Part shown: positions 15,064 through 57,421 of the stretch, piece by piece
Numbering within the stretch: position 1 is the stretch's first letter
Layout of the letters: the number at the start of each line of letters is the position of its first letter
NCBI GenBank assembly: GCA_044892525.1
Contig: CM097885.1
Coordinates: 36,828,001 to 36,892,000 of the forward strand
DNA from: Schmidtea polychroa
Taxonomy: Eukaryota
Direction: 5' to 3'
DNA: 64,000 nucleotides
Program-made: the position numbers and the translations under genes
The notes under the pieces: generated by a model
What the model saw: only the letters and a program-made list of their open reading frames with translations
What the model was told of the DNA's origin: nothing
Database searches by the model: none

Positions 15064-17068
15064 CAGGGCTGTGGAGTCGGAGCTGGAGTCGGAGCTGGAG
15101 TCGGAGTCCGGAGTCGCGGAGTCGTGCATTTTTGGGGAGTCGGAGCTGGAGTCGGAGTCGAGTTAACAGAAGCGACTCCGACTCCGAGTAAAATTTAAAA
15201 TTTTAAGAGGAATTTTCAACATTTTTAGGATTTTGTATAGCAATTAAATTATCTTTTTCAGAATTATTTAATAAACTATTTTTACCTTTTGCTTTTCTAA
15301 GAATCTCTAAGAATATTTTTAAAAAACGGTTGTCAGACAGGTAAATATAAGAAAATTACAAATAATTCTAAAACTCATATAAATTTATTATTATCCTAGT
15401 TTAATTTTGGTATAAATACACGCTGATCTTAATTAAAGAGCATTAGTAATTTTTTTAAAATAAACTAGACAACAACTGAAATTATTAATAAATACCAAAC
15501 TACATCGTGAAATTTTTTGTTGTAGGGAAGTTAAATAAAGTTTTTTTTGTGTGCATTAAAAACGTAAGTTGTGTTTAAATTATTTTTTTGCAATTACTTT
15601 AATAAGTTTCGAGTTTAATAGTATTGTTTTTAATATTTGCAGTTAAAAATTTAGTATTTTCAAAGGCCTCAACATGGATAAAAAATTAAAATCGGCATTA
15701 CTTAAGCATTTTTCAATTACATCAGATGGGAAATTCTATGAATGCCTATGTCATCATATAGAAGGTGATGAAGAACAAATGTGCAAAGTACAATTAGCAA
15801 TTGGCAGAATATGAAATTTAAAACGACATTTGCAGCGTTATCATCCGAAAGTACTAGAAGTAGATAAGGCAAATACTAAACCGAAGACCGCTACACCATC
15901 GTCCTCCGCATCAAACTTATCGGAACCCAGATTATCCAAATTCTACATTAGCGATAAAATTACTGTGACAATGACAGCAGAAGGCTTCAAAACTGCCTTA
16001 ATAAAAATGGTGGTTCAAAACAGTATATCGATATCATTTTTTTCACAGCCAGCATTTTTAGAATTAAATGGTGAAATGGCTAGTAAACTTAAAGTTTCTT
16101 TAGGAAGAGAAAGTATTAGAAAAATAATATTAGATGAGGCTGAAAAACAAAGAAGTTATCTTATAAAAAAATTAGAAGGCAATTTTGTTTTTATTAAAAT
16201 GGATGGATGTACTCGGCATAGAGTAAACTATATTGCAATTAATGTCCGCTTCAATAATAACAAAGAAACTATAACTCAGACCTTGGCAGTGAAAGATACT
16301 CAAGCTCATCACACAAGTGAATACCTAAAAAATATATTGGAAGAAATTCTAAAGGACTTTAAAATTAAAAAAGAGCAGATTTTATGCATAGTAACGGATA
16401 ACGCTTCAAATATGCTAAGTGTTACGGAGAAATTAAATCAGGAAAATGAAGAGGTGTCGGTTACGGAGGACAATTTTGATGCAACTGAACTCTCAGTAGA
16501 GCAAAATAATGAAGACTTGGATGATATCTGTGAAGAAGTATCCAAATCATTTTATATTCAACATATGAGATGCGCTGTGCATACATTGCAATTAGCAATA
16601 CGAGATGGCTTAAAAAACCATGATGCAGCAGATATTACTATGAAGTTGAGACAAATGGCTGTCGCAGCGAGAAATCCTAAAATAGATGCTATCTTAAAGA
16701 AGCGAGCTGGGAAAGGTGCGATGTAGCTAGAATTGTAACCGCTTTACCGCCAACGCAAGTAAGTGTCGAAAGATTGTTCTCTGCTCTGAAAATAATTAAG
16801 TCAGACCTGCGTGCATCGCTTAAAGAAGATTTGATTGAAGCAATTTTATTTTTAAGAAATATATTTTAAAAATTAAAAAATTATGATCAAAGAATAAAAC
16901 AATATAATATTTTAAAAAAGATTTGTTTTGTATTTAACTTATTTTTTGCTCATTTTTTAAAAACCTAAATTTAATAGTATTAAATAAAAAAAAAGATCTT
17001 ATACATGTTAGACCTAGGTCGGAGTCGGAGTCGGAGTTGGTCCATTTTGATACGACTCCACAGCCCTG
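15064..17068 (+). mobile_element. hAT transposon with internal deletion
   Basis: Perfect 16-bp TIR CAGGGCTGTGGAGTCG, TSD ATTAAAAC (15056-15063, 17069-17076), GGAGTC subterminal arrays. Confidence 0.95.
15674..16869 (+). pseudogene. hAT transposase, one nonsense codon plus internal deletion
   Basis: BED-like NLKRHLQRYH, KMDGCT, IVTDNASNM and CAVHTLQLA. The frame then jumps directly to the hATC motif LPPTQVSVERLFSALKIIKSDLR. Confidence 0.9.
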
Positions 17069-17237
17069 ATTAAAACAAACTATTACACCTACAAGAGACA
17101 ACGAGAATCTACAAAAATCATAAAGAATATAAATACTTTTAATAAAATAACAATAATAATAAAACAATGATAAATAATGTTTAATAAAACAATTAAAAAA
17201 TCAGAAAATAACAAAAATATATAAAAAAGCAACACAA

Positions 17238-17263
17238 CTGATTGGACCAAAATTAATATATAA
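17238..17263 (+). promoter_or_regulatory. LTR promoter: inverted CCAAT + TATA (unit H)
   Basis: CTGATTGG, 11 nt, TATATAA. The same arrangement occurs in units B, C and D. Confidence 0.75.
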
Positions 17264-17590
17264 GACAGACTCAAAAATCATTTAACTAACACTACAAAAA
17301 TCACTACAGGAACTCTACAAACTCTATACCGATATCACAAAACTACAGACTTACTCAACCAGGAAGGAATAACCCCTACTACACGTTAATTAGCATCGAT
17401 TGCGAAGAAGAGACATTTGAAATCCGAACTGTTAAGGAGATATCGTGAAATAGATTATAGCCGATTCAGCTTTACGAATTCGATTTCGGAATTTTGGGTA
17501 TGGTTTGTGATTGTTTGTCATGATATTCTTAATTGATATAATAAAGATATATAATAGTAATTTGACGATTTAAATTAATAAATTATTATT

Positions 17591-18493
17591 TCAAATATTG
17601 ATGACTTCTTTCTTCTTCACGGGACTGGCGACGGTGCTATCTGGGAGTTTTGATCATGATGCCGATGAATGTCAGACATTACTTTGAAGGAATCAAAAAT
17701 GTCCAACGAGGAATAGAAGCTATGAATGAATGACGAACAAAAATTTGTGGGAAAGGTTCATCAAGCCAGGACCGGGAAACGATGATTGAATGGTATCGAA
17801 GTTGTTTCGAATGAAAAGATAGTCGAAACTCTCGCCGGAACGGCCAGGAAGCAGAGAGAAATCGGATAAAATTGTTTATGTTATAGTTCGATGAACGATT
17901 GGGAATGACCCGAAGGTATCATGATCGAAACCCAAATGGCATGGTAGCCAGGTAAATTATTTGTAGTTAATTTTGTTGGATAACAATTCGTGATGTGAAT
18001 TTCATGTTTATTTATATTTTCAATATGATCATAATAATTTGAGTCGACCTGTCCCTCATGATGATGTGAGTACGGTGGGTAGTAATACCTATGGTCCTCA
18101 GGTGTGTCATGGGGAGTGGAGAAACTCAGAGTTGAACCAATAAAAGTGAGAGGAAATTCTGAGAGAGGTCCTGAGGTTTTCATTGAATTGCGATCGAAGT
18201 AGAGATTTAGACAAAAATTGAAATCGCGAGTTCCACCATCATCAGTCGAATAAATCGAAAATCAGCTAGGAAATGCGTAGCCATGCCTTCGAAGTATCCA
18301 ACAGACGACCTTTCGCTTCAATAGTTCTGTAGAAAATCGCATTAAACTCGTCATGGATAAAGGCAGATCCACTTACTTCGTCCAAGCGAATAGATTCATC
18401 TTGATAGGGAAAAATCACCGGAAATCTCCAGAATCCAATAAAGTTTTCGTTAACCGAGGCGCAATTCGATCGATCGAACCAGTCGTTCTCCAT
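17591..18493 (-). pseudogene. Antisense accessory gene of LTR unit H, decayed
   Basis: ORF pieces 18266-18493 and 17881-18183. C-terminal KLPDSTVASPVKKKEVINI* is homologous to ELPDGTVAGTMKKKAIFI* in unit B. Confidence 0.6.
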
Positions 18494-18998
18494 AGATATT
18501 ATCTTATCTACCTAAAAATCTGATTCTTCATGATGCCAATTGTAAATATTTATTGCCAGGGATAAGATAAGCCGTCCCCGCACGATATAAATGTTGCCTT
18601 ACAAACATGAATCACTATAGTAATTACTGTTGTATTTAACGATTTTCTGATTCCTATCACGATTCTGCAACATATAAATAATCCTAGTGGAAAATCCGGC
18701 AAATGAAATCTAACACTCTCTGATAAGAAACGGGAATAGTTTATCGCTACGACAGATCACTCCGAAATTAATTGCCAGGTGTGCAGATTAAATCCCCGTA
18801 ATTTGGATTGCCACGACGAAATAAACATAACTACATGCATTGTAGACATTAATTATAGGAGATTATATCATCACATCGTTAACACCTCGATATAAACGTG
18901 TTCATTTAATTATGTGAAGTGTTTAAAGTACAATTTAATCGATATTCTGACAATCCCAGGAAAATTAATCGAGGGACTACAAAGATGCCGGGGGGAAA

Positions 18999-19100
18999 AT
19001 GTACCGCCTCGTCCCAGATGGACAGATGAAATTTCTAGAGGACCACCGACTTCAAGTAGACATTGACGCCATGACGGCTGAGGGTGAAGTGTTTCTCTAA
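18999..19100 (+). pseudogene. C-terminal remnant of the LTR sense ORF
   Basis: MYRLVPDGQMKFLEDHRLQVDIDAMTAEGEVFL* aligns with VFRIVPANGIRFISDCRLPVDIDEIIADGENFA* of unit D. Confidence 0.75.
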
Positions 19101-19379
19101 ATAGCGACGCGAGCTTGGAACCTTGCCTTCTTTCGATCTCATGTGAATGGTTGCTCCGGCTTATAAATGTATATCTGGTATTCGATGTGTATCTTAAAAT
19201 GGATTGTACATACTGATTGTCTCATGTGAATTACAATAAATCTTAGTGATCTTAGCGTTCGTCATTCGATTTACTGTTAACTATTAGGTTTGTATGCTAC
19301 TATCCGAAGATTTGATTTTTCTTTATTGATAAACTCGTCCCTTTGGACCAGGGTCGTACCAATTGTTTGATTAAAAACC

Positions 19380-19518
19380 GGGTAAGTCCTTCTATGGCAC
19401 CATTGAACCCGTACCGAGATTTTACCAGGAGTAGTTCTAACATAGGAGCTCACCTGCTGTAAATTCCGACCTATGTGCGCAGTACCAACGTGTCACACCG
19501 CCACGGGCACACATAAGG
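19380..19518 (+). ncRNA. Conserved structured RNA motif, copy H
   Basis: AGTTCT-AACATA-GGAGCT-CAC; TATGTG(C)GC-AGTACCAA-CGTG...CACG-G-GC(A)CACATA. Confidence 0.75.
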
Positions 19519-19972
19519 GAGATGAACTGCTAGTCATACTGGATACTTAGGGAACCTAATTCTGAGAGCGTAGGAACATTTACTTTTCTTTTCTTCCCTG
19601 GGTACCCAACAACATCTAGTCTATATTTATATACAATTTTTAATTACAGCACTTTCTTCTGATATCTTTCCAATCGATTTTACAAATCTTTTCAATGTAT
19701 TAAAAATATTTTCTAATATAAAGCATTTTGTTTTATAGAAATAATTTTCATCTTCACTATCACTGAATTTTTTTTTATTTGAAATATATCAACAACTTTC
19801 TCTCTAAATAAATGGTTAAATAACTTTAATAATAAACATTTAGGTTATTTTCTAGTATAGGGGTTTATAAATAAAATAGGAGATTATAACTAATACAGTG
19901 GATTATAAAAAAGATTAATTGAAAAATTGAAACATTAAAAAAAATTAGAAAAAATAAAATATTAAGTAAATA

Positions 19973-29645: not shown

Positions 29646-30239
29646 TGTTGGGTTAGAACTGATATCTAGACCCTAGAGCTCGTAAAGGTGACAAAATATG
29701 GTTTAGTCAAAATTAAAAGATAAATCATTAAATAAACAGTAATAATTAGGAGAAATAACAGGAAATAAAAACATTGAAATTAAAAATAAAATCTAACAAA
29801 TACAAGAAGTATTACAGAAAAATTGACTCAAACATAACAGAGAAACATAGAAATACAAAAAAAACTCGAATGAAATCGAAAGATAGTAAAATACTAAATT
29901 CTAGACAAAAATCCAGAAAAATCCATAAAATGGCGACATCCATCATAAAAGCCATGCAAATCAATAAAAGTTAATGAAAATAAATAAATCACGTTTAAAA
30001 ATAAAAAATTTGAAAAAAGAATTTTTCTAATGATCAACTTAGGAGTGATAAAACGGTTCGACATACGTATCGGTAGGGTTGAAAAGATCTCTAAATTAGT
30101 CATACAAAACTCTAAATTGTAAATTGATATCATTCTCAAGAATATAAATCACAATCTTATAGTAACTATAAATTTAAGCTAATTATAAAGAATTAATTTA
30201 TGATCTTGATTTCTTAAAAATGTAAAGTATAGCTAATGT

Positions 30240-31430
30240 ATAGTAAAAGTATCAGGTATAAATAATAAACTTCATTTCTTAAAATATATAAATCATAAGC
30301 TATAAACTCGACTTCGTAAGAAATACAATTAAAAGTGTAAAGTAGAAATTATAAATTCTATTTCTTAAAAATATAAAATATAAATTACGAACTCGATCTT
30401 ATACAAGTATAAATTATAATTGATTATAAAAGTGTAAAGTATAAATTATAATCTTGATGTTCATAAAAATATGAAGCATAAGTATAAAATATATATTTAG
30501 TTCCATAAAAATATAAATTATAAAGTATAAACTTATGTTCTACCTAAAAATATAATCTAAATTCATATTATTCCTAAATTATAAAGTATAAATTTACATT
30601 ATACCAAAAATATAACTTATAAATATATATGACTCCTAAATTATAAAGTATCAATCTATTTATATCAAAAAATAACTTACAAATTCATCTTATTTCTAAA
30701 TTATAAAATATAAATTTATATTATAATCAAAAATCTAACTCATGAATCTATATTATTACTAAATTATAAATTATAAGCTTAGATTGTACTTAAAAATGTA
30801 ACTCATGCACCTACATCATGCCGAAAATTATACTATTCCTAAATCATAACTTGAAAACCTATTGTACATTTGAATATTTAAATTACAAAACCATAATCTT
30901 CCTAAATGATAACCTATAAACTCGATATTATAGAAATGTAAATTATAATTAATAAACTTTAAATCTCCTTTCATAAAATGTAAATTATAAATTGTAATCT
31001 CGATATTCATAAAAATATAAATTATAAATAAATATAAAATTATAAAGTATAAATTCAGTTTCATCAGAGTATAAATTATAAAGTATATTGAATTCATATT
31101 ATGCCAAATTTACAGTTTATAAATCGTATAAATGATGAAAATTTTGTAAATGACCCCCCCCCACTAAAATTATATAGACACTAACCATCATCTAAATAAC
31201 CTAAATTAACCTATTATAATATATATTAAGCTTACATCTTATATAAAAATATATATTGAAAATTTTGTAAATGACCCCCTAAAATCGTGCAACCACTAAT
31301 CATCATCTAAATACCCTAAAGTAGTTTATTACAAAATATATTAGGTTTACATTATATATGAAACGTAAATTGTAATTTTTGTAAATGACCCCCCTCAAAA
31401 TCACATAGTCATCTACCTATCTTAGAGTAG
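30240..31430. repeat. Degenerate AT-rich tandem repeats in the 5' part of unit A
   Basis: TAAATTATAAAGTATAAA-like units, and three ~120-bp units each containing TTTTGTAAATGACCCCC (near 31141, 31262, 31378). Confidence 0.7.
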
Positions 31431-32228
31431 CCTAGTACAATATACATTAAAATTATATTATATATCAAGACATAAATTATAAAGTTTTATTGAATACCCC
31501 CCCCCCCCCCCCCCACCAGGAGGCAGGGCGATCGACTGCCACATTAAAGATCATTCAGAAACCATATATATACCGTATATATTTTTAACCTACAAGTTAT
31601 AATTTAAATTATTTTTTTTGGGTCATATGACAGTTGGGTGGGGCGACGCTGCAACTCGAGCGGTATATGTAGGTAACATTTTTCTCTAACCATAATATTG
31701 AATTAAGAATTTCCTTTAATAATAAAGTTTTGGGCTAAATTTCGGAGTGGAGAAAACTGGAGCGAATAGAAAAAGTAAACCTCGAAAAATAAATGAAATA
31801 AGACAGAAATATAAATTACCATCAAATCTCACTAGTAAATAGGAAGGAACAATAAAATACCAATAAAAGAATAAGAATAAGTAACCAAACTAAATAAAAC
31901 CCAATAAACCCCTTAAGATTTAGAAATAAAACGATTTAAGACACACAGCGGATAAAATAGAAATAGAATAAGCAAAAAAGTGAAACAAATAAACGGGAAA
32001 TTAAAGAAATAAATAAAAAATAAAACCATTTTTAAGTCAAATTAAAACAAAAAAATGATATTACAATAAAATAGCAATAAGTCCGCAGGAAAAATAGGAG
32101 AAAAATAATAAAAATAAGAAAAATAAATAAAATAATAATAAGAAATAAGTCAAGTCATTAAAATTTAATATATGATAATAAAAACATAAAAATAAGAATA
32201 AATAGTAAAATTACAAGCAAGTCGCGTC

Positions 32229-32253
32229 CTGATTGGACGAAAAATACTATATA
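32229..32253 (+). promoter_or_regulatory. LTR promoter CCAAT+TATA (unit B)
   Basis: CTGATTGG, 11 nt, TATATA. Candidate splice donor AG|GTATGT at 32454. Confidence 0.75.
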
Positions 32254-32538
32254 TGTAACGTGAAAAAGTAGAAAACTACCACTTTAATTTTCACGATTAC
32301 AGATATTCCACAGATTACAGAACCATAATCACAGACACCAATTCAGAGACTCCAGAACTTAAATTCAAGAAAACTTACTTAGCGACTAGCGACCAATTTA
32401 TTCGAGACCAGTTTTAAATTTAATTCAATTTGTTCCAGTTGTCGAAGCTCTAGGTATGTTGATCTATTTATGTTTGTTAGTTCAATTTCTTCGATGGTAA
32501 AAATTAAAAATAAAACTCATTTCATATAATAAATTTAT

Positions 32539-33702
32539 TTAAATAAAAATAGCCTTTTTCTTCATGGTGCCGGCGACTGTACCATCTGGGAGCTCCAAGT
32601 ATGATGTGGACGAATCGGAGATATGTCGCGGTGGAGAACATAATCACGAGGAAAATTTTCATCATATGTATCCGGAAGATGTTGAAAAGAAAATATGATG
32701 CTTGAGAAAATGGTATTTGTCGTATGAGAGGTTTGCCAAGAGCATGACAAAATTGCGATTGTATAGAATAAATGACATCATACTTGGTGTCCAAATGATA
32801 GGGTCGCCGGGTGAGATTTTATTATTCATTTGATCATTTTTATTATTTGATTATCATAAATTGTGCACGAATGGTTGATTTGCGAAGAATGAGTCGAACG
32901 GTCCCTCATGACGGTGCAAGAACGGCGGCAGAGATGAATGCATTCTTGGGTGGGTCATGAGGGGTGAGGAGACTCCGTAGGTTGAATCTAGTTAGAAGTG
33001 GAATTTCTCACACCGAGCGCGATCACTCATGGAGTATCTTCGTTTTATGCAGCCACGCCGATGTTTCGAGAATAGAGAAAATAATGCAAATTCCTAAAGT
33101 CGGAGACATTTTCGGGTTGAGATCCATAGTTCTTCACCGTCAGTAGCTTGCTTTCCGTCGAATACCGATAATTGTCCTAGTTGGGGTGGGCGATGAATGG
33201 TTCGAGTTTTTTCCAGAAATAGATTTCATACCAGAGTATCAACGCCACACAGTCGTAGCGGATCTATAGTTGAGATTAAAATTTTCCTCTATGTCATGGA
33301 CGAATCGTCGGACATCGTTTCAGTGAGGCGTTTCCTTCGAAAAATCACCGAGAATTTCTGCTAGACATTTTGGAATTAAATCCTGAGATGTACATTGCCA
33401 GGGATTAGCTAGTAAACCCATTCGTTGACCGAATTTGACTCTAGTTTGACATGAGTATCCGATAAAGCTTGATTTGATATCGATAACGGCGCGCCTAAAA
33501 TAGGAAAAGATACATTTGTTCTTGGTAAGGAAAGGAATTACTTGTTGGGAGTCCGGACGGAGCTGTCAATGGCGATAGGAAGCTCTTCCGCCTGTTTCGT
33601 AGTCAGGTATACTTTCGACCTGGAGGATTGGCCCAATATTCTGATAAAGACATCTAATGTATCGATTGAGGGAGGAGGCCGTCGAGAAAATGAGTTGACC
33701 AT
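32539..33702 (-). pseudogene. Antisense intron-containing accessory gene of unit B, decayed
   Basis: ATG at 33702. A 47-nt GT..AG intron (33541-33495) restores the frame when removed (…RTPN|KRAVIDIKSSFIG…). The gene ends LPDGTVAGTMKKKAIFI* with AATAAA overlapping the stop. Confidence 0.7.
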
Positions 33703-34093
33703 TTTTATCATGAGTTAACATAATGAGCAAATCTGAATGATAAGATTAATTCTACTCTACTGTTGGGCTGAATCGAAAATTTAATCGTTGAAAAATAAGA
33801 AAGTAGGAAAGTAGAACATTAAGGAAAATAAAAATAAAATAAATGAGATCAGAGATAAAATAGAATAAGATATAAGGAAAATAATAATTAAAACATAAGA
33901 ATTAAAACAAAAAATAAAATTAAGTAAAGATTAAAATAGAACAAGTTGACAAATAAATAAGGAGGAATTCAAGAAATAATAAGGAAATTAAGGAAATAAA
34001 TAGAAAAACATATTAAAAATAAAGAAAATAAGGAAAAACAACCTAAAAACAAGAAAATTATATTAAATTAATAGAAATAAGCGGTACTCAACT

Positions 34094-34130
34094 CTGATTG
34101 GCCCGCACAAATAAGAATTTGCTATATATA
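34094..34130 (+). promoter_or_regulatory. LTR promoter CCAAT+TATA (unit C)
   Basis: CTGATTGG, 21 nt, TATATATA. Candidate donor GTAAGG at 34415 and acceptor TTTTACAG at 36385. Confidence 0.75.
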
Positions 34131-34639
34131 CAACCACCAAAATCATTAAATTTACTGTTAACCCCGAGGATTTTATAGGTAAGAGAGAATGTTTAAACTG
34201 TCTACTGTTAACCCCGAGCATTTTATAGACATCCACAACTTACGGAGACACATTCAAGAATCAGAGACACTAACCGAGCAACAGTTCATTCAGAGAATTC
34301 ATAGCTACTTACAATCAATTCGAAGTTAAGAGATTTGTCACAGCAATCGATATTCCATCAACAAACTCATTCAGAGCGACTCACATTAATTTTTCGATCC
34401 AGCCTAATTCGAAAGTAAGGGATTTTATTTCATTCATTTATTTAAATTCGAAGTTAACAGTATTATGTATCTTTAATGAATAATTAAAAATTTTGAAAAA
34501 TGACATTGACTCTCTTTTCATTTGATCCCAATTAATGATTTCGATAAAATAAATAATTTAAAGGTCTAAAAGTAGTTATTAGTAATAAATGAGCGATTGC
34601 ACGATCTTTATGATTACTGTTATGAAATACCTTTTTATG

Positions 34640-35700
34640 ATTTTTAAAGTAACGAGTAACGTGGAGTTGAGGAACCGCGGATCATGGTGTGAGGTGCCTT
34701 CGGGAGCTTAGCCGGTGGATCTGAGGTTCTTCAATCACGCAGCTAGATTGGGCCGAAATGTGAAGGCTTCTTCACGGGCCCAATCGCTGAAGGATTGACT
34801 CAAAATTAGACAGAATGAGGAAAAACGATTTAGATTTGTGACATGAATTTAGAACGAATACCGAAATGTACAGTGATTGAGGTGGACATTACATCTGCAG
34901 TGAGTTTATTTCCATCCTGAGGAACCATGCGATCCTGAGACTAACTCTTCGCTAGCATCGTCGTAATCAGTCCAATTTGACTCTAACATCGTACTAAATT
35001 CCACACTTATGTTCGGTTAATTAAAAATTAGGACGAATTCTATATTCCTTCATTTTTCAGTTAAAAATAAATAAAGCTCTAATGTATAAATAACATTTAT
35101 TAAAATTAAAGTAAAAACACAACTCCTGATAATCATTTTATTTAACTTATACTTACTAGTAAACTAGAAATACCCGTTCAGCAGTTTCCACCCCATCACA
35201 TCAGGATGTCTATCATCGAAATAATATCCACATAGAGTAGGGAGTTGAATTGTAGAACTTTTTCATCAAGTAATATCTAGAATTGAGGAAAATCTCCAAA
35301 CATAGTAAATAATTCCAAAAAAATTCCAAACGAGAGAATTGTCATGAAAATTGAACGGTTGAGAATTTGTCCATATGATGTGCGAGTACAGATAAATTTT
35401 CCATTGAGTAGGCACACTAGCATGACTATGGGTAGCAACACCAGCGTTAGAATTACCTGAGAAATACACACGAGGATAGATGATAATCACGCAGTGAGTG
35501 CATGGCTAATCATGGTAATCCGTGTTCCATATGTCGTATCTAGCATAGATTCTAGCATTACGACTGATAACGACGGGATATTGAGTACTCGTCATAGTAG
35601 CTCCATGAATAGCAGATGATGGCTCTCGTAGATTTTTGTGTTGAAATGCGGTCAACGAAAGATAACTACATGCAGTAACTTTTCACAAACCACTCATCTG
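34640..35700 (-). pseudogene. Antisense accessory gene region of unit C
   Basis: Higher-GC coding-like pieces (ORFs 35266-35490, 35277-35471), an LPEGT-like motif near 34710, and QWK..WR similarity to the unit G plus strand. Exon structure unresolved. Confidence 0.45.
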
Positions 35701-36395
35701 GAAAATTTTCGAATGAATTAAATTTAACTGATAATAGAATGACTAAATGGATAATTATAGACAATTATAATTCGAATTAAATAATTTAAAGGATAACCGA
35801 ATGACCAAATGCGTAATTGTAGACCAGTATGAGTTAAACTAAATAATTTAAACGGTAACGGGTATTGTTAAATTAAGTGGGGATAATTGGGACCTGCTAA
35901 CTAATGATGGAAAACTAAAGCCAAGCGTTAATAATAGAGTCGGAAATTGTAAATTCGAGTGTTCTAACGAACAACGAATAGTAATTTTGAATAATAGGTA
36001 AATTAATTCGAGTTCGTGAATAATAACATTTTGAATAACCATGGTAAATATTTTAAATGATAATTAAGAGTGTTTTAAAAGCTACTCAAATGTACATTTT
36101 AATAATCAGATATGTTCATAGACCAACAATCATAGGGCAATTTAGTAATTAATAAACCTTCTCAATTTCTAAGTTAAAGATTTATTTGCATTCGTCAATG
36201 CTATCCCTTTAATGAACTATTCGTTAAATAAAAGCGATGTTACAAAATCGTCTAGAAGGGAAATCCATTCCCCTACTTATTCCGAATACCCGCTAACTGC
36301 TGACAGTGACTACCCAACCTCATTCGACCTGCGATCTTATTCATATAAAAGATTTACTAAGTCGTTATAGTTCCTTATTTTACAGTTGATCAATT

Positions 36396-37145
36396 ATGGT
36401 GCCAACTAAGAAATCCACCTTACGTCCTTGCTTCTCTTGCGCGGACAAAAACGCGATTATAAAGGATCTTCAGGCCCAGATCGGGCGCTACAAAAAGAAG
36501 ATAGATGAGCTGGAGGGCACTTGGTTTACCCCCGCTCAGATGAAGAAGACTCAAAAGAAGCTTCATCGTAGTGAGCATTGTCGGGACGCGCTCATCTCTG
36601 AAAGCCGTGCCCAGAGAAGCCTTATTAAAGAACAGTCAGAAGCGCTGCACAAAGTCTACGTGCAAGCAGCTACTACACAAAAAATCGTACAGATTCCCAT
36701 CAAAGAGGCCGATAACATCTTCCCGCCTCATCATAACCCCTCATCAAATCCACCTCCACCGTTCAAGAGACCCTGTCGAGACTGCGTGGAGACCGAACTG
36801 TCACCTATGCGACCGGACGTTGTCATCACAGGTACTAGTAAGACCTCAACTGCTAGTATCTCTGTATCCGCTGCGCTTCAGCAAGTCGCATCTGCAAGCA
36901 AACCCAAGCGCAAACAATTATCTCGTGCGGAACGTAAGAAGAGACAGCGTGAGCGCGCATCCACAAAGCCGAACATCCCATCGATAGAAAATTCAACCAG
37001 TGGTAGTAGTTCGCGCGTGTCCATCGACTTGACAGTAGGACCCCCAGCGCGCATCATCTCAGCAGCTGGCGTGACGTGGGAGGAAAACGCCTCCGAATTC
37101 TTTAATCTGGATGAGTTACTCGCCGACACCGAATGGGGAAAGTAA
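36396..37145 (+). CDS. LTR-encoded accessory protein, intact 249 aa
   Basis: PCFSCADKN, coiled-coil-like heptads, EGTWFTP, Pro-rich linker, KPKRKQLSRAERKKRQRER and acidic FNLDELLAD tail. Five homologues in the window; preceded by a splice acceptor. Confidence 0.85.
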   Translation: MVPTKKSTLRPCFSCADKNAIIKDLQAQIGRYKKKIDELEGTWFTPAQMKKTQKKLHRSEHCRDALISESRAQRSLIKEQSEALHKVYVQAATTQKIVQIPIKEADNIFPPHHNPSSNPPPPFKRPCRDCVETELSPMRPDVVITGTSKTSTASISVSAALQQVASASKPKRKQLSRAERKKRQRERASTKPNIPSIENSTSGSSSRVSIDLTVGPPARIISAAGVTWEENASEFFNLDELLADTEWGK

Positions 37146-37415
37146 GAGAACCACAGTGGCATTCCCGAAGCCTGTTGCGAAGTCGGACTACATTTGTTGG
37201 GGTGTTTTTTCTTTTCCTTCGACAAACATTCGTTATGTGTACAGTTGAATCCTCGTGTCTAAATGTTGTAATTAATAAATTTTGTTGTTTCATATATTTT
37301 CGTTTATGAATAGCCAGACTTTGATTAAATAGGTTAAATAAAGCGTCTTCGAGAGCTAAGGAATAATCCACGATTTGTTTTCGCGAAATTCCGACAAACG
37401 GTGGTGTAATGAGAT

Positions 37416-37561
37416 GGACGTAAGCCCTTCTATCGGCAGTCGTGAATGGGAAGTCGAGGCCTCAGCAAGGAGTATTTTTAAGGCAGAAGCTCACCTGCTT
37501 GCTGGAGTCTCGCCTGCATAGTGCAGTACCAACGTGAAGTAATTCACGGGCACTATGTTGG
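37416..37561 (+). ncRNA. Conserved structured RNA motif, copy C
   Basis: Outer stem GAGGC.TCAGCAAG/CTTGCTGG.GTCTC; inner TTTT-AAGGCA-GAAG; CATAGTGC-AGTACCAA-CGTG..CACG-G-GCACTATG. Confidence 0.8.
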
Positions 37562-38030
37562 AGGAAAGTTATGTGGGGTTTCACTCCAGGTTGACAAGGC
37601 AGTAGCACATTTTATTCGAGATGGACAATCCACCCGTAGACCAGCCAATATTGTAGAGTAGTCAGCCGAGGTGTAACCCCAACACTACTATACCCACGAG
37701 TAACCTACACAATCAAGTTTCTTGAGTTTTCGAACACACCAACTGAATTTTCTGTCTTAACTGGAACCGTATCTGCAACGCTATATCTATTAATTACTGC
37801 CCACACATACACACCTGCATCACACTCAAATTAGATCACAGTGAACATGTGGACATCAGTATTACTTAATCATAGTGAGAGAGTCGTAAAGCTGCATCTA
37901 CGAGTGGTCCACTAGATTTCTTCAACGAAAAATCACAGCACGATGAGAACAATTTTTGTTGTATGCAAGTTGCTAATTAAATATTCAGACATGCATTGCA
38001 AAGGAACCGTCGATATTTGTTGGTATAGAT

Positions 38031-40659
38031 CAGGGGTGGCAAAACTTTCAAGTCTTGCGGGCGACTTTTAACTAAATTAAATCTGGCGGTCTACCAGAAA
38101 AACTATTTTCAATTGTTACCTGTAGTTATTCTATTTATTCTATTTAAATACAAAACGAATTAGAAAAAAACTTATAATACTTTACTAGAACGTAAACATA
38201 TCTTAATATAATATTATTTACTGCTACTACTTGCACCTGATACGTGGCACTGCATCTTATCAGCAAGTTCTTCGTATTTCGGGCAATAGGAGCTTATGGC
38301 GATCCGCAAGCATGATTCCAAATGATCATCTGTCAAACAAGATCGATGTTTTTTTTAATGACATTCATTGAAGAAAAGGCTGATTCACAAAGATAGGTGG
38401 ATCCAAAAAATGCGGACATATATCCAACTACTCTCCGCAAAATTGGATATTTTTCTTCTGAAATAAGATTCCAAAAATTATCTTCGGTTGTAGCTCTTGA
38501 TTTTAAGTAAATGTCGCTTTTCAACGCTATTATCTCATCTTCTAAGCAAGCTGAATCTGAATCCAGAAATTCATTAATCTGAGTAGCGATCTCCTCTGTA
38601 TCAATAACATTATTAAACGGGAATGACATGAACATAGCAATATTTGCAATTTTAGATAAATCTGCGAAACATGTGTTAAATTCATTTAAAAGGGTAGTAA
38701 TTTGATTTGTATATTTATCGTAAAGAATTCCTGGCGCATTTTTGGATTCTTCTTCCATGTTTTTAAAATGTTTCAAATCACCCCGTTCTAGTTGACGCAC
38801 AAACAAGGACAGTTTCTCTTTAAACGTCTTTACTGCCGTTATCATGTCAAGAATTGATTTGTGTCTCCCCTGAAGCTGTAAATTTAATTTATTCAGGTGC
38901 TCTGTAATGTCGCAAAGAAAAGCAAGATTTATCAGCCAACTTTTATCCTCCAGTTCGGGATATAATTCTTCTCTTCCAGTCAAAAACTGTTTTATTCCGG
39001 GCAAAAGATCTCTAAATCGTTTTAAAAATGCTGCACGGCTAAGCCATCTTACATCCGTGTGTAACAATAATTCAGTATTTTCAATTTCACATTGTTCAAG
39101 CAAAGTTCGAAATTGACGTCGTTGTAGACTTCTTGCACGTATCGAATTTACTATTTTAAACGCAATATTCATTACATAGTTCAACACTTTGGAGCATAAG
39201 GTTTGCTGGTGGATAATGCAATGATACGAATGAAAACTGGGAATTTCTTCATCATTTTTGCAAAGTGTTACAAATCCGACATGTTTTCCGATCATAGACG
39301 GAGCTCCATCCGTGGTAATTGATACCAACTTGTGAATCGGGAAATGGGTGCGACTTATAAAAGACTTGAATAAATTGTAAATATCTTGACCCCTTGTTTG
39401 TCCTTTCATTGGAAGAATAGTCAATAATTCTTCTCTGGTTGACATATCATCAAAAAACCATTCGAATGAAGATGCATAGTTGCGCAGTATCAGTGAAATC
39501 TGTAGATTCATCAAATTGCAAAGAGAAAAAGCGGCATTTTCGAATATCTTGCCGCAAAATATCTTCCAAGTTTTTGCTAATGTCCACCATTCTTTGCGTG
39601 CTAGTATTGCGCGCCAATGACATATTGTTGATACAATCCATTATTTCGGATTTATTTTTAAAATCTTTGAATAACACCTCACCAGCTTCAACAAACGCCT
39701 GTTTCCATATTTCGCCATCTCCAAAAGCTTTTTTATGTTTCATCAAAATATTAACTACCTTGAATGATGCTAGGGTAGCTGTTTTTGATTTTGAGTTAAA
39801 TTTCGTAAAAAAAGTTTGTTGTGCACCTAATTGAGACTTTAACTGCTTGACTTTGTCTTTTCGTACCTCGGAATGTAATGGAAAGTCAATTTCATACTGT
39901 TTGTGCACTGTTCGAAAATATCGTTCAACGTTAGCTCTTTTAGGTAGTGCTACGTTTGAATTACAAATGAGACAAACACACTTATCTTTCATCATTATGA
40001 AAAAAAATTCCTGTTCCCATTCAGTATTATAATGGTACGTTTTAGTTTTTTTGGCCGGTTGTGTCATTGGGGCTAAAACAAGAAAATAATAAAAGCTAAA
40101 ATAAATTAAATATGAAAATTAATGTTAAACACACTTACATACTCAAAAATTAAAAATGTTAACTTTTATAAAGAATTTTTTTTAATAAAAAAATTTTGAA
40201 ATTAATATTATAAGCAGGTATTATTCAATACTGAAATACTTCAAGCTTTCAAATTTTTCTAACGAAAACAATTTGATTTCAAAATTTTTTTATTTTATTT
40301 TGGTTGTTTTTTATTTTTTTATTCCTTATCGAAGATTGTAGCGTCAATGTTTTGCTTTTATTTTATGGCCTACTTGTTCAAACACATGAAATTTATTCTG
40401 ATTATTAGCTAACTGTATATATTTGAATTTCAAACTAAAAGTTTACTACACTCTGAGTGTTATCTGACTAATATTATGTTTCTTATTGGAATTTTTTTGT
40501 CATATGAATTGAAACTTATTTTAAATATGTTTATAAAGTTAGAAATTCAATAAATAAAAAACTGATTTTTATATGCAATTTTCCATAGTGCTAGCGGGCT
40601 ACTTTCGATAGCTACGCGGTCGACCAGTCGACCGCGGTCGACGCTTTTTGCCAGCCCTG
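38031..40659 (-). mobile_element. Buster/Charlie (SPIN/GTF2IRD2-like) hAT transposon, complete
   Basis: TIR CAGGG(G/C)TGGCAAAA, TSD GTATAGAT (38023-38030, 40660-40667). Confidence 0.95.
38214..40067 (-). pseudogene. Near-intact hAT transposase with two homopolymer frameshifts
   Basis: FDESTD, TTDGAPSM, HCIIH, DVRWLSR and STYLCESAFS. Frameshifts fall in a T-run near 39455 and an A-run near 38350; the C-terminus LTDDHLESCLRIA is recoverable. Confidence 0.9.
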
Positions 40660-41262
40660 GTATAGATAGACAAGCAAATTAACACATATTTGCGTCCGAT
40701 TTAGGCGTCGCCATGACGATTTTTATGGCGTTAAATTTAAAATAATTAAGTTATAATTTAGGATAGGAATTTTTAGCGAAAGTATCTTAATTGTCGTACA
40801 AACCCGAGGGGTCTACATACAAATCGAGGAGATCCCGGTAATCGCTGAATTTTCTCCCATCATATAGTACATATAGAATTTAGTGACGCAGTAGCGAAAT
40901 GGGGGAAAGTGGAATTGTTGAAATATAATGAAACGAACTAAAATAATCAAGATCACAATAATGAAGTAATACTAATACATTAGTTAGGAATAGTAGCACT
41001 CGTAAAATAAACGTAAAGGTTGAAGTTAATATGAAGGAATGTTTTTCGGAAATTCCCGTTTTCTTCTCATAAATTAGTAATGATTGAATGGTTTAACTTG
41101 GATGTTTGAGATCGAATGAATGGGGGTATTGACTAACGGTGTGGATTTGTGACCCCTATTGAACAGCTTGATTAGGAAGATTTTAAATTGCGTATTCGAA
41201 AATATAAATAATACTCCAGCGAATTTTACAATTTAAAGATAAAGATTTTCTCAAAACTTTAG

Positions 41263-42025
41263 ATGAATGCCTCAACCAGCTCCGGGAAAACCCTCCGTCC
41301 TTGCTTTTCCTGTGCTGATAAAAATGCCGATATCGCACAGCTCCACTTATACATCGGGGAACTAAAGAAGAGAATTGACCTCTATGAGGGGACGTGGTTC
41401 TCCCCACCACAAATGAAGGAGGAGAAGAACAAGATTCTACGTTTGGAGCACTGCCGTGACAGTCTCCTGGAAGAGAGCAGGTGCCAGAGGCTAACCATAA
41501 AAGCCCAATCAGAGGCACTGCACAAAGTATATTCCGAATCAGAAATAGCGAAGCGAGTTCGCGAGTATCCAATACAAGATGGGACTAACGTGTTCCCAGG
41601 GCACCACCAATCAGCGGAAACACCATCCACAACTAGTTGCAAGGGGCATGGCTTACAATTGCCGCCAATCCCCGCCCAGTCCTTTCTGGTTACCGGCTTA
41701 TGGCTGGCGGTCGATCGGACCCTATCTTGGCTCCAATCCTTGTGTCACCCCTCATTCAGCCTCCAGCAGAAGCCACCTTGCCACCCCGAAAGCGTAAGCG
41801 GCCGACCCGCTCGGAGAAAAATCAGAAGCGCAGAAACGCCATGGCCGCGCTCGAGGCATCGTTATCTGCAGCCAAATCGACTATCAAGGAAATTACCGTT
41901 ACCCATTCCATTCCTACAAAGAAGTATTCCGGGTAGTTCCAGCCGACAGCATCAAATTCCTCGAAGATCGCCGATTGCCCGTTGACATCGACGAGATGCT
42001 CGCAGAAGGAGAAGCATTCCCGTAG
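41263..42025 (+). pseudogene. LTR-encoded accessory protein of unit B, two 1-nt deletions
   Basis: PCFSCADKN, EGTWFSP, PPRKRKRPTRSEKNQKRR, VDIDEMLAEGE; frameshifts near 41677 and 41925. Confidence 0.85.
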
Positions 42026-42308
42026 TGAATCTTCCCATCGGCCCCGATTCCTCTACCTTATGCCTGAACTCGAATGATTTGACAATTATTGTGTGCATGT
42101 GCTTAAATGTTTCATCATTATCCAACTAATATGTACTGTCGTTTATGTTTTTTCATTTCAATACAACCGTTCTATTTTCTCTGACTGTGTTAGTTATATG
42201 GGTGATTTACGGTGGTTGAATTGAACGAGAAGGGGATCCTGAAGATATAGTATGAGCTTAAATGTCGTCCCCTTGGGCCGGGGCCGGACTGAATCACATG
42301 TATAGAAT

Positions 42309-42449
42309 GGGTAAGACCTTCTAAGGCACCGTAGAACCCGAACCGAGAAAGGGTTAGGAGTAGTCCTAAGGCAGGGGCTCACCTGCTAACCTTTTCCAAC
42401 CCGTGTGAGCAGCACCAACGTGGAACATCGACACGGGCTCATGCGTGGG
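42309..42449 (+). ncRNA. Conserved structured RNA motif, copy B
   Basis: GAAAGGGTTAG/CTAACCTTTTC outer stem; AGTCCT-AAGGCA-GGGGCT-CAC; GTGTGAGC-AGCACCAA-CGTG..CACG-G-GCTCATGC. Confidence 0.8.
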
Positions 42450-43220
42450 AATATGTGAATGATCATGTGAAGTATGTGAGGGAATAGTCTGAGCAGAACG
42501 ATGTTACTGGATCTGTATGATAATCATGTATGTATAAATTTTTTCTTTTTCGCATACGCCAACAAAAGTTTAGTTTGGATCACCTTTTCCCCAATGACAT
42601 AAATGTAAATCACCGACACCTATCCTCAGTAAACTCCTTCAGATCACATAATCAATGGCAGCGAGATCGCTAGTAATCTTAATAAGTCTTAACAATACAA
42701 AGCCCTGACTTCAATTTGAATTATATCAGGAAAAGGTCTTGAAAAATGGTAATACGAAAATATAACTAAATCACTCACATAAAGAAAAGAACGTGGAAAA
42801 CGCACAAAATTTTATTATCTGACAAAATTATTAAATTTCATGAGATGACACCGTGTTGGCAGTGAATCAGTATCCAAGTACTTTTTCGACATTAAGCAGA
42901 CTAAACTCTCGTGAACGACTGAGGTACAATTTAATTTGGTTTTACAAATTCAAATAAACCAAAATTTTAGTTTATTAAGATGATTATTCGCGTCATAGAT
43001 GATTATTAGTTCGAGGTCTAGTTTTAGGCTTTCTTTTGCTGTGAGATGATAGGTCGGGTAGTACGGTCACGAATTTTCCCTTTTCTTTTGTGTTTGGGAT
43101 CTAGTACTACCAATTAAAAATTGACCTTAAGCGTGGAGATTGAATTTTACTATTATACGATGACCGACAGAACTATATCTTAAACAATTATAGAAATGTT
43201 CCAATCCAGCATCTACGATG

Positions 43221-43772
43221 ACAAAGAATCAAACCGGCAGTTAATCACTCGACTCCGGACTGGAACTGGGGTCGAGACCTGGAAAACTACGGTCCAGTAA
43301 TATGGAATGGACCCGAGGCCGATGCCCGGGCGTGGGTTAAACCGGAACCCTACAATAACCTATTGGTGGAGGCCCGCGACCAAGCGATGGCAGAATTAGA
43401 AGCAGCGAAAATCAAACTGTGGAAAATCGAGAACCAGCTGCGAGTAGAAGCAATGGGGATCCGGGAACTCGAGGGCACTTGGTTTAGTCCGACCGAAATG
43501 AAGAAGACGTCTCAAATACTACAACTTCAGACTCAAGCCGAACAAGATCAAACTGAAATCCGTGCGTTAAGGTTACAGATACGCGCGTTAGAAACCAAGC
43601 TGAATCAACAACTTATCAATGAGGCCACAGCAGCAGAGATTCGCCCTCTGCCAACAGAATTGGCCGAAATATATCCACCGGCTCCGTCAACCTAAACGAA
43701 GCGTAAGAGGTTAGGTCGAAATACCCGCGAAAACCTAAAGAAACTCCGGCTGGTAAGGCTGGTAAGGACCTA
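43221..43772 (+). pseudogene. Divergent LTR accessory protein of unit A
   Basis: Open frame from 43221 with IRELEGTWFSPTEMKK and a coiled-coil-like segment. After an in-frame TAA at 43693 it continues TKRKRLGRNTRENLKKLR. Confidence 0.7.
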
Positions 43773-43929
43773 ACCCAAACTCAACCATCAAAGGTGTTGT
43801 AACCGAGAGTACATTTTGAGATTTAGCATAAATTAACGTGTATTTTAATGTGACTTATGTTTGACTGATGACAGAATGATGGGTGTATATTTTGGAAAAC
43901 AATTGTGACAAGGGACCTGAGTGAAATCG

Positions 43930-44064
43930 GACACATCTTCTAACGATAGTCCGTGTACCTAAGGAGTGCCCGACAATTATAGTGCAATTAGTGCGCTCAC
44001 TTTTTGCGAGCACTCCCCAACTTAATACAGTACCAACGTTGATTACTCAATGGATATCAAGCGG
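43930..44064 (+). ncRNA. Conserved structured RNA motif, copy A (most divergent)
   Basis: GGAGTGC/GCACTCC outer stem; AGTGCA-ATTAG-TGCGCT-CAC; AGTACCAA-CGTTGA..TCAATG-G. Confidence 0.7.
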
Positions 44065-44140
44065 TAAAACAATGTTGTATCCTGGGTTACGCTGGTAACA
44101 GCACGAAAAAGTAAATCATTTGATCATCAGTAACCCACCA

Positions 44141-48459: not shown

Positions 48460-48920
48460 TTACGGTGCTCTACTAGTACCCGTGATAACCAGCTCTGACG
48501 TGGAAGGCGACAGATCGGCCTCTACAAAATCGCGACATCCCGGTTTGGACGAGAGATTAGAATGATATGGAAAGTCGTGATTGATGGGGAAATGATTATC
48601 CGCTTCGGCGATTGGAATATCCACTATCTTCTTCGTAACGGCGTCCTGTAGGTAGACCTTATGCAGAGCCTCCGACTGCTCTTTTATTAGGGATCGTTGA
48701 GCTCGGCTCTCCTCGATCTAACTGTTCCTACAATGTTCGCTACGGAACAGTTTTTTTTTACCTCCTGCATTTAGGGTGGAGAAAACCAGGTTCCTTCCAG
48801 GTGATCAATTTTCTTCTTGAGCAATCCTATCTGTACTTGGAGGGTCTTGATAATGCTGTTCTTGTCCGCATAAGAAAAAAATGGGTTGAGAGAATTCTTG
48901 GTTGATGATCTAGCTACCAT
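48460..48920 (-). pseudogene. LTR accessory protein of truncated unit G (C-subfamily)
   Basis: DKNSIIKTLQVQIGLLKKKIDHLEGTWFSPP*, then RSEHCR..ESRAQRSLIKEQSEALHKVY...VITGTS, collinear with 36396-37145. A strong acceptor TTTTCGTTTAG lies 4 nt before the ATG. Confidence 0.85.
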
Positions 48921-54557: not shown

Positions 54558-55006
54558 TTAATAAAATTTAAATAATTTTTATATACTTTTAATAATAAAT
54601 TTAAACAAATATAAACAATAATATTAATGAAATGAGATTAATTAAAATGGAATTAAGAAATAATGCCGTTTATCAAATTGTAGGTCCTAGTGTTAGAGGG
54701 AAAACTTTATTTGTTTGTAAATTATTACAATCGAATATGTGCAAATCAAAATTTAATAAAATATACTGGCATAAAGGAGCTGATGACGAGCATGTTATGA
54801 CACAAGATCAGTTTTGTAAATTAAAAATGAATATAATGAAGGGATTTGATAAAAATTGGTCATCTAGATTATATCAAGGTGATGTTATAATTACTGTTGG
54901 CGTATGAGGGGAGAACGGAAAAATAAAAATTCATCATCAGCTGTACCATCACGTGTATTCAACTCAGATCTTCCCCGATCATACTCCAATTGACTTCACG
55001 AATATT

Positions 55007-55147
55007 CCCTCATGTGAGCCCGTGGCGATGTTCCACGTTGGTAGTGCCCACACGGGTTGGAGTTGGCTAACAGGTGAGCCCCTGTCTTAGGACTACTGAT
55101 AACCCGCTCACGGTTCAGGTTCCATGGTGCCTTAGAAGGACTTACCC
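55007..55147 (-). ncRNA. Conserved structured RNA motif, copy D
   Basis: AGTCCT-AAGAC-AGGGCT-CAC; GTGTGGGC-ACTACCAA-CGTG..CACG-G-GCTCACAT. Confidence 0.8.
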
Positions 55148-55444
55148 CTATTCATACATCAACCACGGTCCGGTCCTGGTCCAAGGGATCGACCTTTATC
55201 CTGACTACATTCATCTCACAGCATTATTTCGTTTATCCTGATTTCAAAATCAAACATACGGGAACTTCACAAGTCAAAATCGAACAGAAAAATAATATAT
55301 TGACACCGAAAACACAAAAGAAAAAATTACATCGTGACCAATGATAGATTAACAACATTCGATCAATTTGCACATGCAGCATTATCAACGTTTGCAAGTC
55401 GAATCACAACCCGAAGAGAAATCGAGATCGAACGTAGATCGTTT

Positions 55445-56150
55445 CTAGGCAAAGTTTTCTCCGTCGGCGATTATCTCATCGATGTCGACAGGCAATCGAC
55501 AATCCGATATGAATCTGATGCCGTTGGCCGGGACAATCCGGAAGACTTCCTTCGAGGGGATCGAATGGGTGGATGATATTTCCGTTATTTTTGACTGCGC
55601 TGCAGACAATGATGCTTCGAGCGCCTTTATCGCATTTCTCCGTTTTTCATTCTTCTCGGCCCTGGTCGGGTGTTTTCGTTTGCGAGGTGGTGGATTTTCT
55701 CCTACAGCCGTAGTGACGGTAGGTGCCACTAGAACCGGGGCCAGAATTGGGTCAGACGGAAATAGGTAAATATCCCTTTCATAGGTAAATATCCCGACAG
55801 CACTGGGGCTGGGATGGGCGGTAGATGTGAACCGTGCCCTTGACAAATTGTGGTAGAAGTGGTAGAAGACTGATGGTGGAGAGGAAAAACGTTTGTTCCG
55901 TCGACGACAGGAAATTCGTGCACTCGCTTGGCTAGTTCTGCCTCCGTATAGACTTTATGGAGGGCTTCGGACTGGGCCTTTATTGTGAGCCTTTGGCAGC
56001 GGCTCTCTTCCAGTAGGCTGTCCCTACAGTGTTCTAATCTGAGGATCTTAGCCCTCTCCTCCTTCATTTGTGGCGGGGAGAACCACGTACCTTCGTAAAG
56101 ATCGATCCTCTTCTTGAGGGCCCCGATGTACAAGTGCAATTGAGCGATGT
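55445..56150 (-). pseudogene. LTR accessory protein of unit D, N-terminus deleted, one frameshift
   Basis: DIAQLHLYIGALKKRIDLYEGTWFSPPQ..., PPRKRKHPTRAEKNEKRR, VDIDEIIADGE; frameshift at a short duplication near 55780. Confidence 0.85.
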
Positions 56151-56589
56151 CCTTGAGCGATACTTGAAGTCACCAGAGGGTACAGTCGTCGGCACCCTGA
56201 AGAAAAGCCGTTTCTGTTTTCAAATAAATTTATTGAATGAAAATTATTCTTGTTATTTACAAAAATTACCAAAGTCAATCATAAATATCTACTAAATTCA
56301 ATCATATTCATCATAAAACTAAACCATAAATAATTTAACATACTTCGCGTTTGAATAACTAGATTAAATCGGTTAACGTTAAAGTTTTCCTGAATAAGTC
56401 TACTGATAGTTCGCTATGAGTTTCTTCCTAGAATAGATTTAGTCGTCTTTGAATTAGTCCTCCGTAATAATTCGTAAGTTAAGTTCTGCAATCTGCAATC
56501 GTGGATTAAAAAGTGGTATTCTTCTAACTCAAAACTTTTACCTGCAATCGTGGATTAAAAAGTGGTATTCTTCTAATTTTCCACGTTGC

Positions 56590-56615
56590 TTATATACCAT
56601 TTTTCGTCCAATCAG
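56590..56615 (-). promoter_or_regulatory. LTR promoter CCAAT+TATA (unit D)
   Basis: CTGATTGG, 11 nt, TATATAA on the minus strand. Confidence 0.75.
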
Positions 56616-57421
56616 GACTCAGTTAGGTTGTAATTTTTAATATTTATTATTATTTTATGTTTTTATAATATATTAGCTTTTAATAACTTAACTTATTTCT
56701 TATTATTATTTTATTTATTTTTATTATTTTTATTATTTTTCTCCTATTTTTCCTGCTGATTTATGGCTACTTTATTGCCATATTATTTTTTGTTTTAATT
56801 AGGCTTCAAGATATTTTTATTTTTATTTATTGCTTTAATTTCTCGTTTATTTTCTCTCACTTTTTCGCTTATTCTATTTCTACTCTATCCACTGTGTGTT
56901 TTAACTCATTTCTCTTATGTCCTATTTCTAATTCTTAAGGGTTTTATTTATTCATTACCTATCCTATTTCTTTTTATGGGTGTTTTATTGTTTTCTCCCG
57001 ATTTATTACCGAGGTTTGGTGGTAATTTATTTTTTATTACATTTCGTTTATTTTTCGAGGTTCGTTTTCCCGATTCAACCCAGTTTTTCTCCACTTCAAA
57101 ATTTAGCCCAACATTACTGATGATTTATATCAGGAAGCAAATAAAGAGAAAGATTTTAATAATTCCGATTCTGACATTCTGCTTGATCCCATATCCATTC
57201 CTCATCATGGATGCTCAGTTGCTCCCCTAAAATTCTTAATTACTTTGGTATGGCGCAGCAAACAGTTTATTAACTATCGAGATATATATTTGAAATTTCC
57301 GCACACTCACAGTTAACTATTCAATTTATTTTCGATCATCAAAATTTTCTCTGGCTACGTGGATCACTCCTAATCAGTCAGTCTGGTTGTTTCCTCGTGA
57401 AAGGTCATCTCAGTTTAATTA

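Follow-up and report, generated by a model that had tools for sequence, protein, structure and literature searches.

Planarians harbour giant gypsy-like long terminal repeat (LTR) retrotransposons named Burro and GYPSM1 (Jurka 2007; Grohme et al. 2018; described in PMC6431247). In the account of PMC6431247 Burro has a total length of about 30 kb and a single polyprotein near 4,900 amino acids, and the section of that paper on Burro is silent on any gene, intron or structured RNA within the LTRs. Burro RNA is described as abundant and PIWI-controlled in planarians in the relevant parts of PMC6884822 and PMC8532177, and Burro is merely mentioned in those of PMC11410931. Multi-kilobase LTRs, of 1.9-6.5 kb, are also described for the Ogre elements of plants (PMC6431247). 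In mouse mammary tumour virus (MMTV) the sag gene lies in U3, and the endogenous copies are mostly solo LTRs (490 of 527 sag contigs; PMC4667437). Complex retroviruses solve the problem of an intron-retaining RNA with Rev and the Rev response element or Rex and the Rex response element (PMC12789967). Here we analysed a 64,000-nucleotide stretch of Schmidtea polychroa DNA (assembly GCA_044892525.1, contig CM097885.1, positions 36,828,001 to 36,892,000, forward strand; the window), which contains five LTR units (H, A, B, C and D). Our reading, to which we assign a probability of roughly 0.7, is that these are solo LTRs of Burro-like elements with a selected gene that is likely transcribed from its own TATA box, spliced and polyadenylated inside the LTR, and that the predicted product is a dimeric nuclear regulator.

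The window units and their full-length relatives

The genome searched comprised 781 Mb in four large contigs, and 40 of the 2,708 candidates from a DNA search with unit C were scored. Exact 4-bp target site duplications (TSDs) flanked 10 of the 12 near-full-length C copies, and the other two were 3' LTRs of larger elements, lying behind a fixed internal junction. Other copies were followed by a primer binding site (PBS) complementary to the genome's own tRNA-Pro(TGG) and starting 7-8 nt beyond the LTR end. An A-type LTR end followed by this PBS was found at 407 places as compared to 0 for the control. The first-pass annotation had suggested a search with the C- and B-type LTRs for pairs flanking gag-pol, and such pairs were found. 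One C-group element measured 29,997 bp, with a GTAA duplication, two 3,842-bp LTRs that were 100% identical and a 4,732-codon frame encoding gag, CCHC knuckles, a viral fusion glycoprotein, protease, reverse transcriptase (RT), RNase H, integrase and ankyrin repeats. A RING frame preceded this polyprotein and a RING-TRAF/MATH frame came after it. B-type LTRs flanked a 31.5-kb element of the same plan, and relatives of unit B were paired 26 kb apart around gag-env-pol. An A-type element additionally carried BIR, which was seen in this type only. Overall the full elements were 30-35 kb long with LTRs of 4-6 kb. Pfam matches to RVP, RVT_1, RT_RNaseH, Integrase_H2C2, rve and Retrotrans_gag gave the order protease-RT-RNase H-integrase, a Ty3_capsid match fell below its cut-off, and Monjiviricetes_fusion sat between zf-CCHC and RVP in one frame, placing env between gag and pol. 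The 3' LTRs of the C, B and H types had no polypurine tract upstream. Conserved just 5' of these LTRs (L074-L077 on G000:C3, L155 and L167) were instead a hairpin and a GC-rich non-purine motif, and the A type was similar. As the source of the primer tRNA we noted a tandem tRNA-Pro(TGG) array with 475-bp spacing at about 130.90-130.95 Mb of G000:C1 (L200-L203), and the 3' end of the array gene had 1,580 matches genome-wide.

With paired LTRs around gag-env-pol-ankyrin, a tRNA-Pro PBS and RING, TRAF/MATH and BIR frames, the guess of the first-pass annotation that the units are solo LTRs of Burro or its relatives is well supported, and we regard it as almost certain that they are solo LTRs of Burro-like giant Ty3/gypsy elements. 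The Burro-like assignment was made by domain plan against the description in PMC6431247. The annotation had also offered that the unit moves in trans by itself, without an internal region, and many copies do have perfect TSDs and no internal sequence. Solos would, however, have been left by recombination between the two LTRs of an element, which accounts for the TSDs so that trans mobilisation is not needed. Moreover, the PBS of paired copies is missing from solo copies, relatives with a PBS exist for each of the C, B and A types, an H-like LTR adjoins the internal 3' junction and the deletion of unit D did not spread. Movement in trans is thus extremely improbable.

All five units were recovered at the positions, net sizes and 4-bp TSDs originally given for them (Table 1). 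Termini of the form TG...CA hold in general but not for B, which opens with TT. The absence of a PBS and of gag/pol next to the window copies was also upheld; the missing polypurine tract carries no information because full-length elements also lack a canonical one. The units are nested, B being the host of C and A the host of B, and the three pieces of B rejoin into a sequence that an uninterrupted B-type solo copy elsewhere matches at 97%. The ORF (open reading frame) of unit B starts at 41263 and its reading frame is broken in the window copy, and that of unit H has mostly been removed by deletion. In unit A a deletion at 43222-43695 fuses two sense ORFs that intact relatives keep separate, and the deletion junction of unit D was spanned by the window copy alone among 40 scored matches.

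A reading frame under selection inside the LTR

Comparing the C ORF to the genome yielded 6,904 candidate places, the best 150 of which were scored and showed 86-100% identity. The first 120 codons were stop-free at 141 of these 150 places, a tally biased to the best copies, and 29 of the 33 LTRs of the C and B groups had the ORF at full length. A first look with the A-type protein gave 7,114 candidate places. The ratio of nonsynonymous to synonymous substitution (dN/dS), measured pairwise, was 0.06-0.12 for the C ORF against diverged subfamilies, 0.16 within B, 0.13-0.20 for close C copies and 0.18-0.27 for a frameshifted copy, and in four pairwise scans the synonymous excess was confined to the ORF frame. 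Intact A-type LTRs (5.1-5.9 kb) carried two sense frames. One, ORF-a, has about 120 amino acids and ends in RKRGRPRK; the other is a coiled-coil exon with homology to the C/B protein. The median dN/dS was 0.14 for the former (61 pairs) and 0.10 for the latter (96 pairs), the pairs being non-independent. The coding-selection signal is therefore present in the units for the sense ORF, at a dN/dS of 0.06-0.16 between diverged subfamilies, and judging from the sequence comparisons this ORF is very probably a gene under selection.

The first-pass annotation had described the units as carrying two genes, the second antisense within the large intron. Two genes were found in intact A-type LTRs only, and there both are sense. 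A fast-evolving antisense gene would fit the GC-richer blocks with acceptor-like motifs on the minus strand and a 128-codon stop-free run that exceeded shuffles in 2 of 11 intron interiors, both H-type (P 0.01-0.02). The antisense runs were at chance level in the other 9 interiors, no antisense frame with a sustained synonymous excess was found in the four pairwise scans, and the H-type run had a dN/dS of 0.5-3.5 in 15 pairs of at least 60 codons and 0.2-0.45 in 6 short pairs, with the frame shifting between copies. The large-intron interiors do not align between subfamilies. We consider a coding antisense gene very unlikely; a non-coding antisense RNA is possible.

When 1.84 billion proteins were searched with a profile, the LTR protein had 18 matches at E<=0.001, 4 of them at E<=1e-10. 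A coil-GTWxxP-coil core was common to all 15 matches examined, mostly with a basic run after it, and no protein name was attached to the 10 that were looked up. Word-indexed protein searches gave no match at E<=0.001, either with the C ORF or for a distant homolog among shorter proteins. Pfam gave no match for the C, B and A ORF-a proteins and only sub-threshold matches for A ORF-b. The best E value of a PDB sequence search with the LTR protein was 0.03, Foldseek against PDB and viral structures gave no match at E<=0.001, and the Atlas search reached 0.83 at best, with no usable match for ORF-a. The public gene models P0001-P0015 include the LTR protein domain, many of them fused to what we read as host-like genes (transporter, phosphatase, protease, channel) and several with an arginine run after the coil. 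These fusions are probably mis-predictions across solo LTRs, and the LTR ORF inside public gene models is a practical warning for annotation.

The structure predicted for the LTR protein contained helices at residues 13-40, 46-98, 177-189 and 238-242, with a mean pLDDT (predicted local confidence) of 61.7. Residues 6-118 were predicted to form a parallel dimer with a score of 0.61 as compared to 0.00 for the best of 3 controls, with contacts agreeing by at least 83% between runs and a pLDDT of at least 77. In calibration 21 of 30 solved pairs attained the dimer mark, as did none of 23 single chains; for eukaryotes it was reached by 17 of 29 pairs, but by only 1 of 7 without an older relative. 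We predict that the LTR protein is a dimeric nuclear regulator of the element.

Predicted transcript, structured RNAs and neighbouring features

The CCAAT box, the TATA box and two splice donors were retained across subfamilies whose exons are only about 50-60% alike (unalignable). A mini-intron of 46-58 nt bracketed by a direct repeat of 19-35 nt was present in 39 of 52 distinct LTR 5' ends, and the left edge of this repeat lay at TATA+25 to +31 in 35 of the 39. The remaining 5' ends had a single repeat copy (11), a variant donor (1) or were a false call (1). The bracketing repeat was near-identical within each LTR and different between lineages. At L008:1868-2010 the mini-intron unit occurs twice and the repeat three times. 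ATG was absent from the predicted leaders of all 12 lineages, whereas shuffling the second exon gave an expectation of 26.3; the lineages are related and the donors were chosen by pattern. An AG lay 0-10 nt 5' of the ATG in all 33 LTRs with an ORF listed, and in 32 of 37 LTRs a poly(A)-type hexamer preceded a conserved GTAAG box by 142-153 nt. The layout initially proposed for the units was thus found present and conserved in its CCAAT and TATA boxes, donor GT at 34415, acceptor AG at 36384-5, sense ORF and 3' structured RNA, but its antisense gene is without coding signal. We think it likely that the LTR is a self-contained spliced transcription unit, whose RNA would start about 29 nt downstream of TATA and upstream of the ORF.

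The double hairpin in the large intron had a z score of -5.87, and 5 of its 53 pairs were changed on both sides (7 sequences, effectively two sequence types). In the 3' structured RNA two-sided changes were found in 18 of 30 predicted pairs (10 sequences from C, B, D, H and a remnant). Rfam covariance models run against the LTRs at E values up to 5 gave no match except a chance-level snoRNA, and a hammerhead or other ribozyme was rejected for want of an Rfam match. A coding exon in the conserved intronic block was also rejected, as its changes are non-synonymous yet its base pairs are kept.

Table 1. LTR units in the window, features of unit C and the extra A-type frame (window positions unless a locus is named)
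Feature	Position	Strand	Remarks
Unit C	33761..37684	+	solo LTR, 3,924 bp, TG...CA, TSD CTAC
Unit B	31728..42564	+	solo LTR, TSD AAAG, net 4.27 kb; contains C and a hAT-like insert at about 38031-40659
Unit A	29646..44140	+	solo LTR, TSD TAGT, net 3.65 kb; contains B
Unit H	14704..19611	+	B-related solo LTR, TSD ACAT, net about 2.9 kb; hAT-like insert at 15064-17068
Unit D	54895..57113	-	B-related solo LTR, TSD GTAA/TTAC, 2.2 kb; private internal deletion
Inferred U3	33761..34152	+	A-rich block, CCAAT-type box (CTGATTGG, 34094), TATA (34123)
Predicted cap site and 26-nt first exon	34153..34178	+	repeated at 3' end of mini-intron; repeat begins at TATA+30
Predicted mini-intron	34179..34228	+	50 nt, GTAAG...AG
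Predicted second leader exon	34229..34414	+	ATG-free
Predicted large intron	34415..36385	+	interior varies between subfamilies; no antisense coding signal
Double hairpin in large intron	34660..34789	+	conserved, C group
LTR ORF (unit C)	36396..37145	+	249 aa: CxxC, two long helices around EGTWF, basic motif, acidic tail
Predicted polyadenylation signal AATAAA	37274..37279	+	hexamer spacing conserved
3' structured RNA	37415..37570	+	opens with donor-like GTAAG (37420)
120-aa A-type ORF (ORF-a)	L206:48-410; L208:110-463; L218:3752-4111 (-)		no database match

Decayed pieces of the same LTR superfamily lie on the minus strand of the window at 48469-48920, 27700-28010, 2050-2360 and 59675-60337, and consist of one broken ORF, two copies of the structured RNA and a 5' end of the A type. 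Frames resembling hAT transposases were recognised by eye from translations at 3858-4809, 10738-12545, 15064-17068, 29014-29316, 38031-40659 and 50710-52611, and one of them was the insertion target of unit A. A mir-753 precursor, presumably a planarian microRNA, was detected at 57622-57682 at the Rfam gathering score.

Proposed replication and comparison with known systems

We lean towards a location of the LTR gene in R/U5. In this model the RNA 5' end would be the left edge of the mini-intron repeat, at about TATA+29, and the default product would be a short mRNA made up of the two leader exons, the ORF and AATAAA. The packaged genomic RNA would use the same start site, keep the large intron and read through AATAAA. 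U3 would span about 390 nt, leaving about 3.5 kb for R plus U5 and giving a first (strong-stop) cDNA of about 3.5 kb. If the cap-proximal intron were spliced out of the packaged RNA, the strong-stop cDNA would end in the first exon and could anneal to the exon copy at the 3' end of this intron in the unspliced 3' repeat, whereby the intron would be copied anew and the two repeats made alike. The triplicated repeat of L008 would come from a misaligned jump when the RNA was unspliced. Both strand-transfer routes would require the RNA to begin at the repeat edge. Within the LTR of one mosaic element, in which the inferred U3 travels together with the internal region, identity to C was 96-98% for the first 400 nt but 28-82% from +400 to +3600; the adjacent internal region of this element was mostly 82-98% identical, with a dip to 50-70% at -600 to -200. 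This pattern would be expected if templates were switched at the RNA 5' end.

The ORF could instead lie inside a giant U3 as in MMTV sag, with the TATA box serving the accessory gene only and genomic RNA arising from a second promoter near the structured RNA. No 3.5-kb strong-stop cDNA would then be required, and this arrangement is in keeping with retroviruses, in which R measures 15-250 nt and U3 harbours sag and part of nef (PMC12789967), and with the internal U3 promoter described for sag (PMC4667437). It leaves unexplained the identical repeats within each lineage with their edge at TATA+29, and by eye no TATA box lies between the ORF stop and AATAAA of unit C. We consider a giant U3 unlikely.

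Several points weigh against our reading, beginning with the gene itself. Two very close B pairs had a dN/dS of 0.53 and 1.22, and copies are therefore not under selection after insertion; in the searches above, no regulator resembled the LTR protein in sequence or fold. Support for transcription and splicing is comparative. One probe, limited to the C and Y types, gave 0 matches to copies without the large intron, which the genomic RNA would have to keep. We also rejected mini-intron loss as proof of splicing: the mini-intron is not the same in L080 and L081, the two LTRs of one element, and its loss is therefore explicable by DNA slippage. Tandem slippage can homogenise repeats too. Mosaic breakpoints also lie at about +890, +1000 and +1700, so that the switch at +400-470 is not unique, and the intronic hairpin was demonstrated in the C group only.

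The least certain step is what the LTR protein does. It may act like Rev or Rex and, by attaching to the hairpin in the intron or to the 3' structured RNA, promote intron retention, read-through or export of genomic RNA, and a switch at the RNA level is favoured because keeping the intron and passing AATAAA is the problem solved by Rev and Rex. We propose this only tentatively, by analogy, and give the same weight to a role on DNA or chromatin, as a transactivator or in anti-silencing, with the structured RNAs as packaging or dimerisation signals for Gag. The acidic-hydrophobic tail of the LTR protein and the RKRGRPRK end of ORF-a, which we take to be an AT-hook-like motif, would suit a DNA role. 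The 3' RNA begins at a donor-like GTAAG upstream of the PBS, with an acceptor ahead of the first internal ORF, and retroviral packaging signals come after the major donor. No DNA-binding domain was matched, and the covarying hairpin in the retained intron suits a response element equally well. The LTR as a whole could resemble the regulatory module of a complex retrovirus: its gene would lie in R/U5, the first cDNA would be about 3.5 kb long, the cap-proximal intron would be rebuilt at each strand transfer and a Rev-like LTR protein would switch between short mRNA and genomic RNA. We hold this full combination to be possible but rather doubtful.

Solo LTRs are usually regarded as promoters without a product. 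Those described here retain a complete selected gene, and if it is expressed a large hidden protein family would exist in a regeneration model. Each solo LTR would then be a small gene, and on the full regulatory-module reading thousands of trans-acting regulator genes would lie across the planarian genome. Were the cap site 3.5 kb away from the primer site, far beyond the 15-250 nt of retroviral R, strand transfer, retention of the intron and the choice of poly(A) site could be tested directly.

The full elements resemble Burro and GYPSM1 in a length of at least about 30 kb, a single polyprotein of around 4,800 codons, CCHC knuckles in gag, an in-frame fusion glycoprotein between gag and protease, and ankyrin, TRAF/MATH, RING and BIR domains (BIR in the A type here), whereas TRAF/MATH here is a separate downstream frame. 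The BCL2-like, SUMO-like and dUTPase-like motifs of Burro were not found by Pfam or by phmmer against PDB, the published calls having used HHpred. In the literature on LTR-encoded ORFs and introns and on planarian Burro, a scope without Grohme et al. 2018 or Repbase, we found no description of these LTR genes. Ogre elements likewise combine multi-kilobase LTRs with extra ORFs, but theirs lie in the internal region and not in the LTR. The likeness to Rev and Rex would consist in a small protein from a spliced message, with predicted oligomerisation helices and a basic motif that we take to resemble the arginine-rich motif of Rev, and in a structured RNA kept only in intron-containing RNA; there is no homology, and the gene here is inside the LTR. 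That LTRs normally carry no genes, as the first-pass annotation put it, holds in general, yet solo LTRs bearing sag have been published before (PMC4667437). As with sag (and nef in HIV-1), the whole ORF lies in the LTR and persists in solo LTRs, and no sequence relation between sag and the LTR ORF was found. In contrast, sag sits in U3 upstream of the main cap site, whereas here the predicted cap site precedes the ORF, which would have a leader, an intron and an AATAAA of its own. A gene so placed, with leader, intron and poly(A) signal in one LTR, would be what is new relative to sag.

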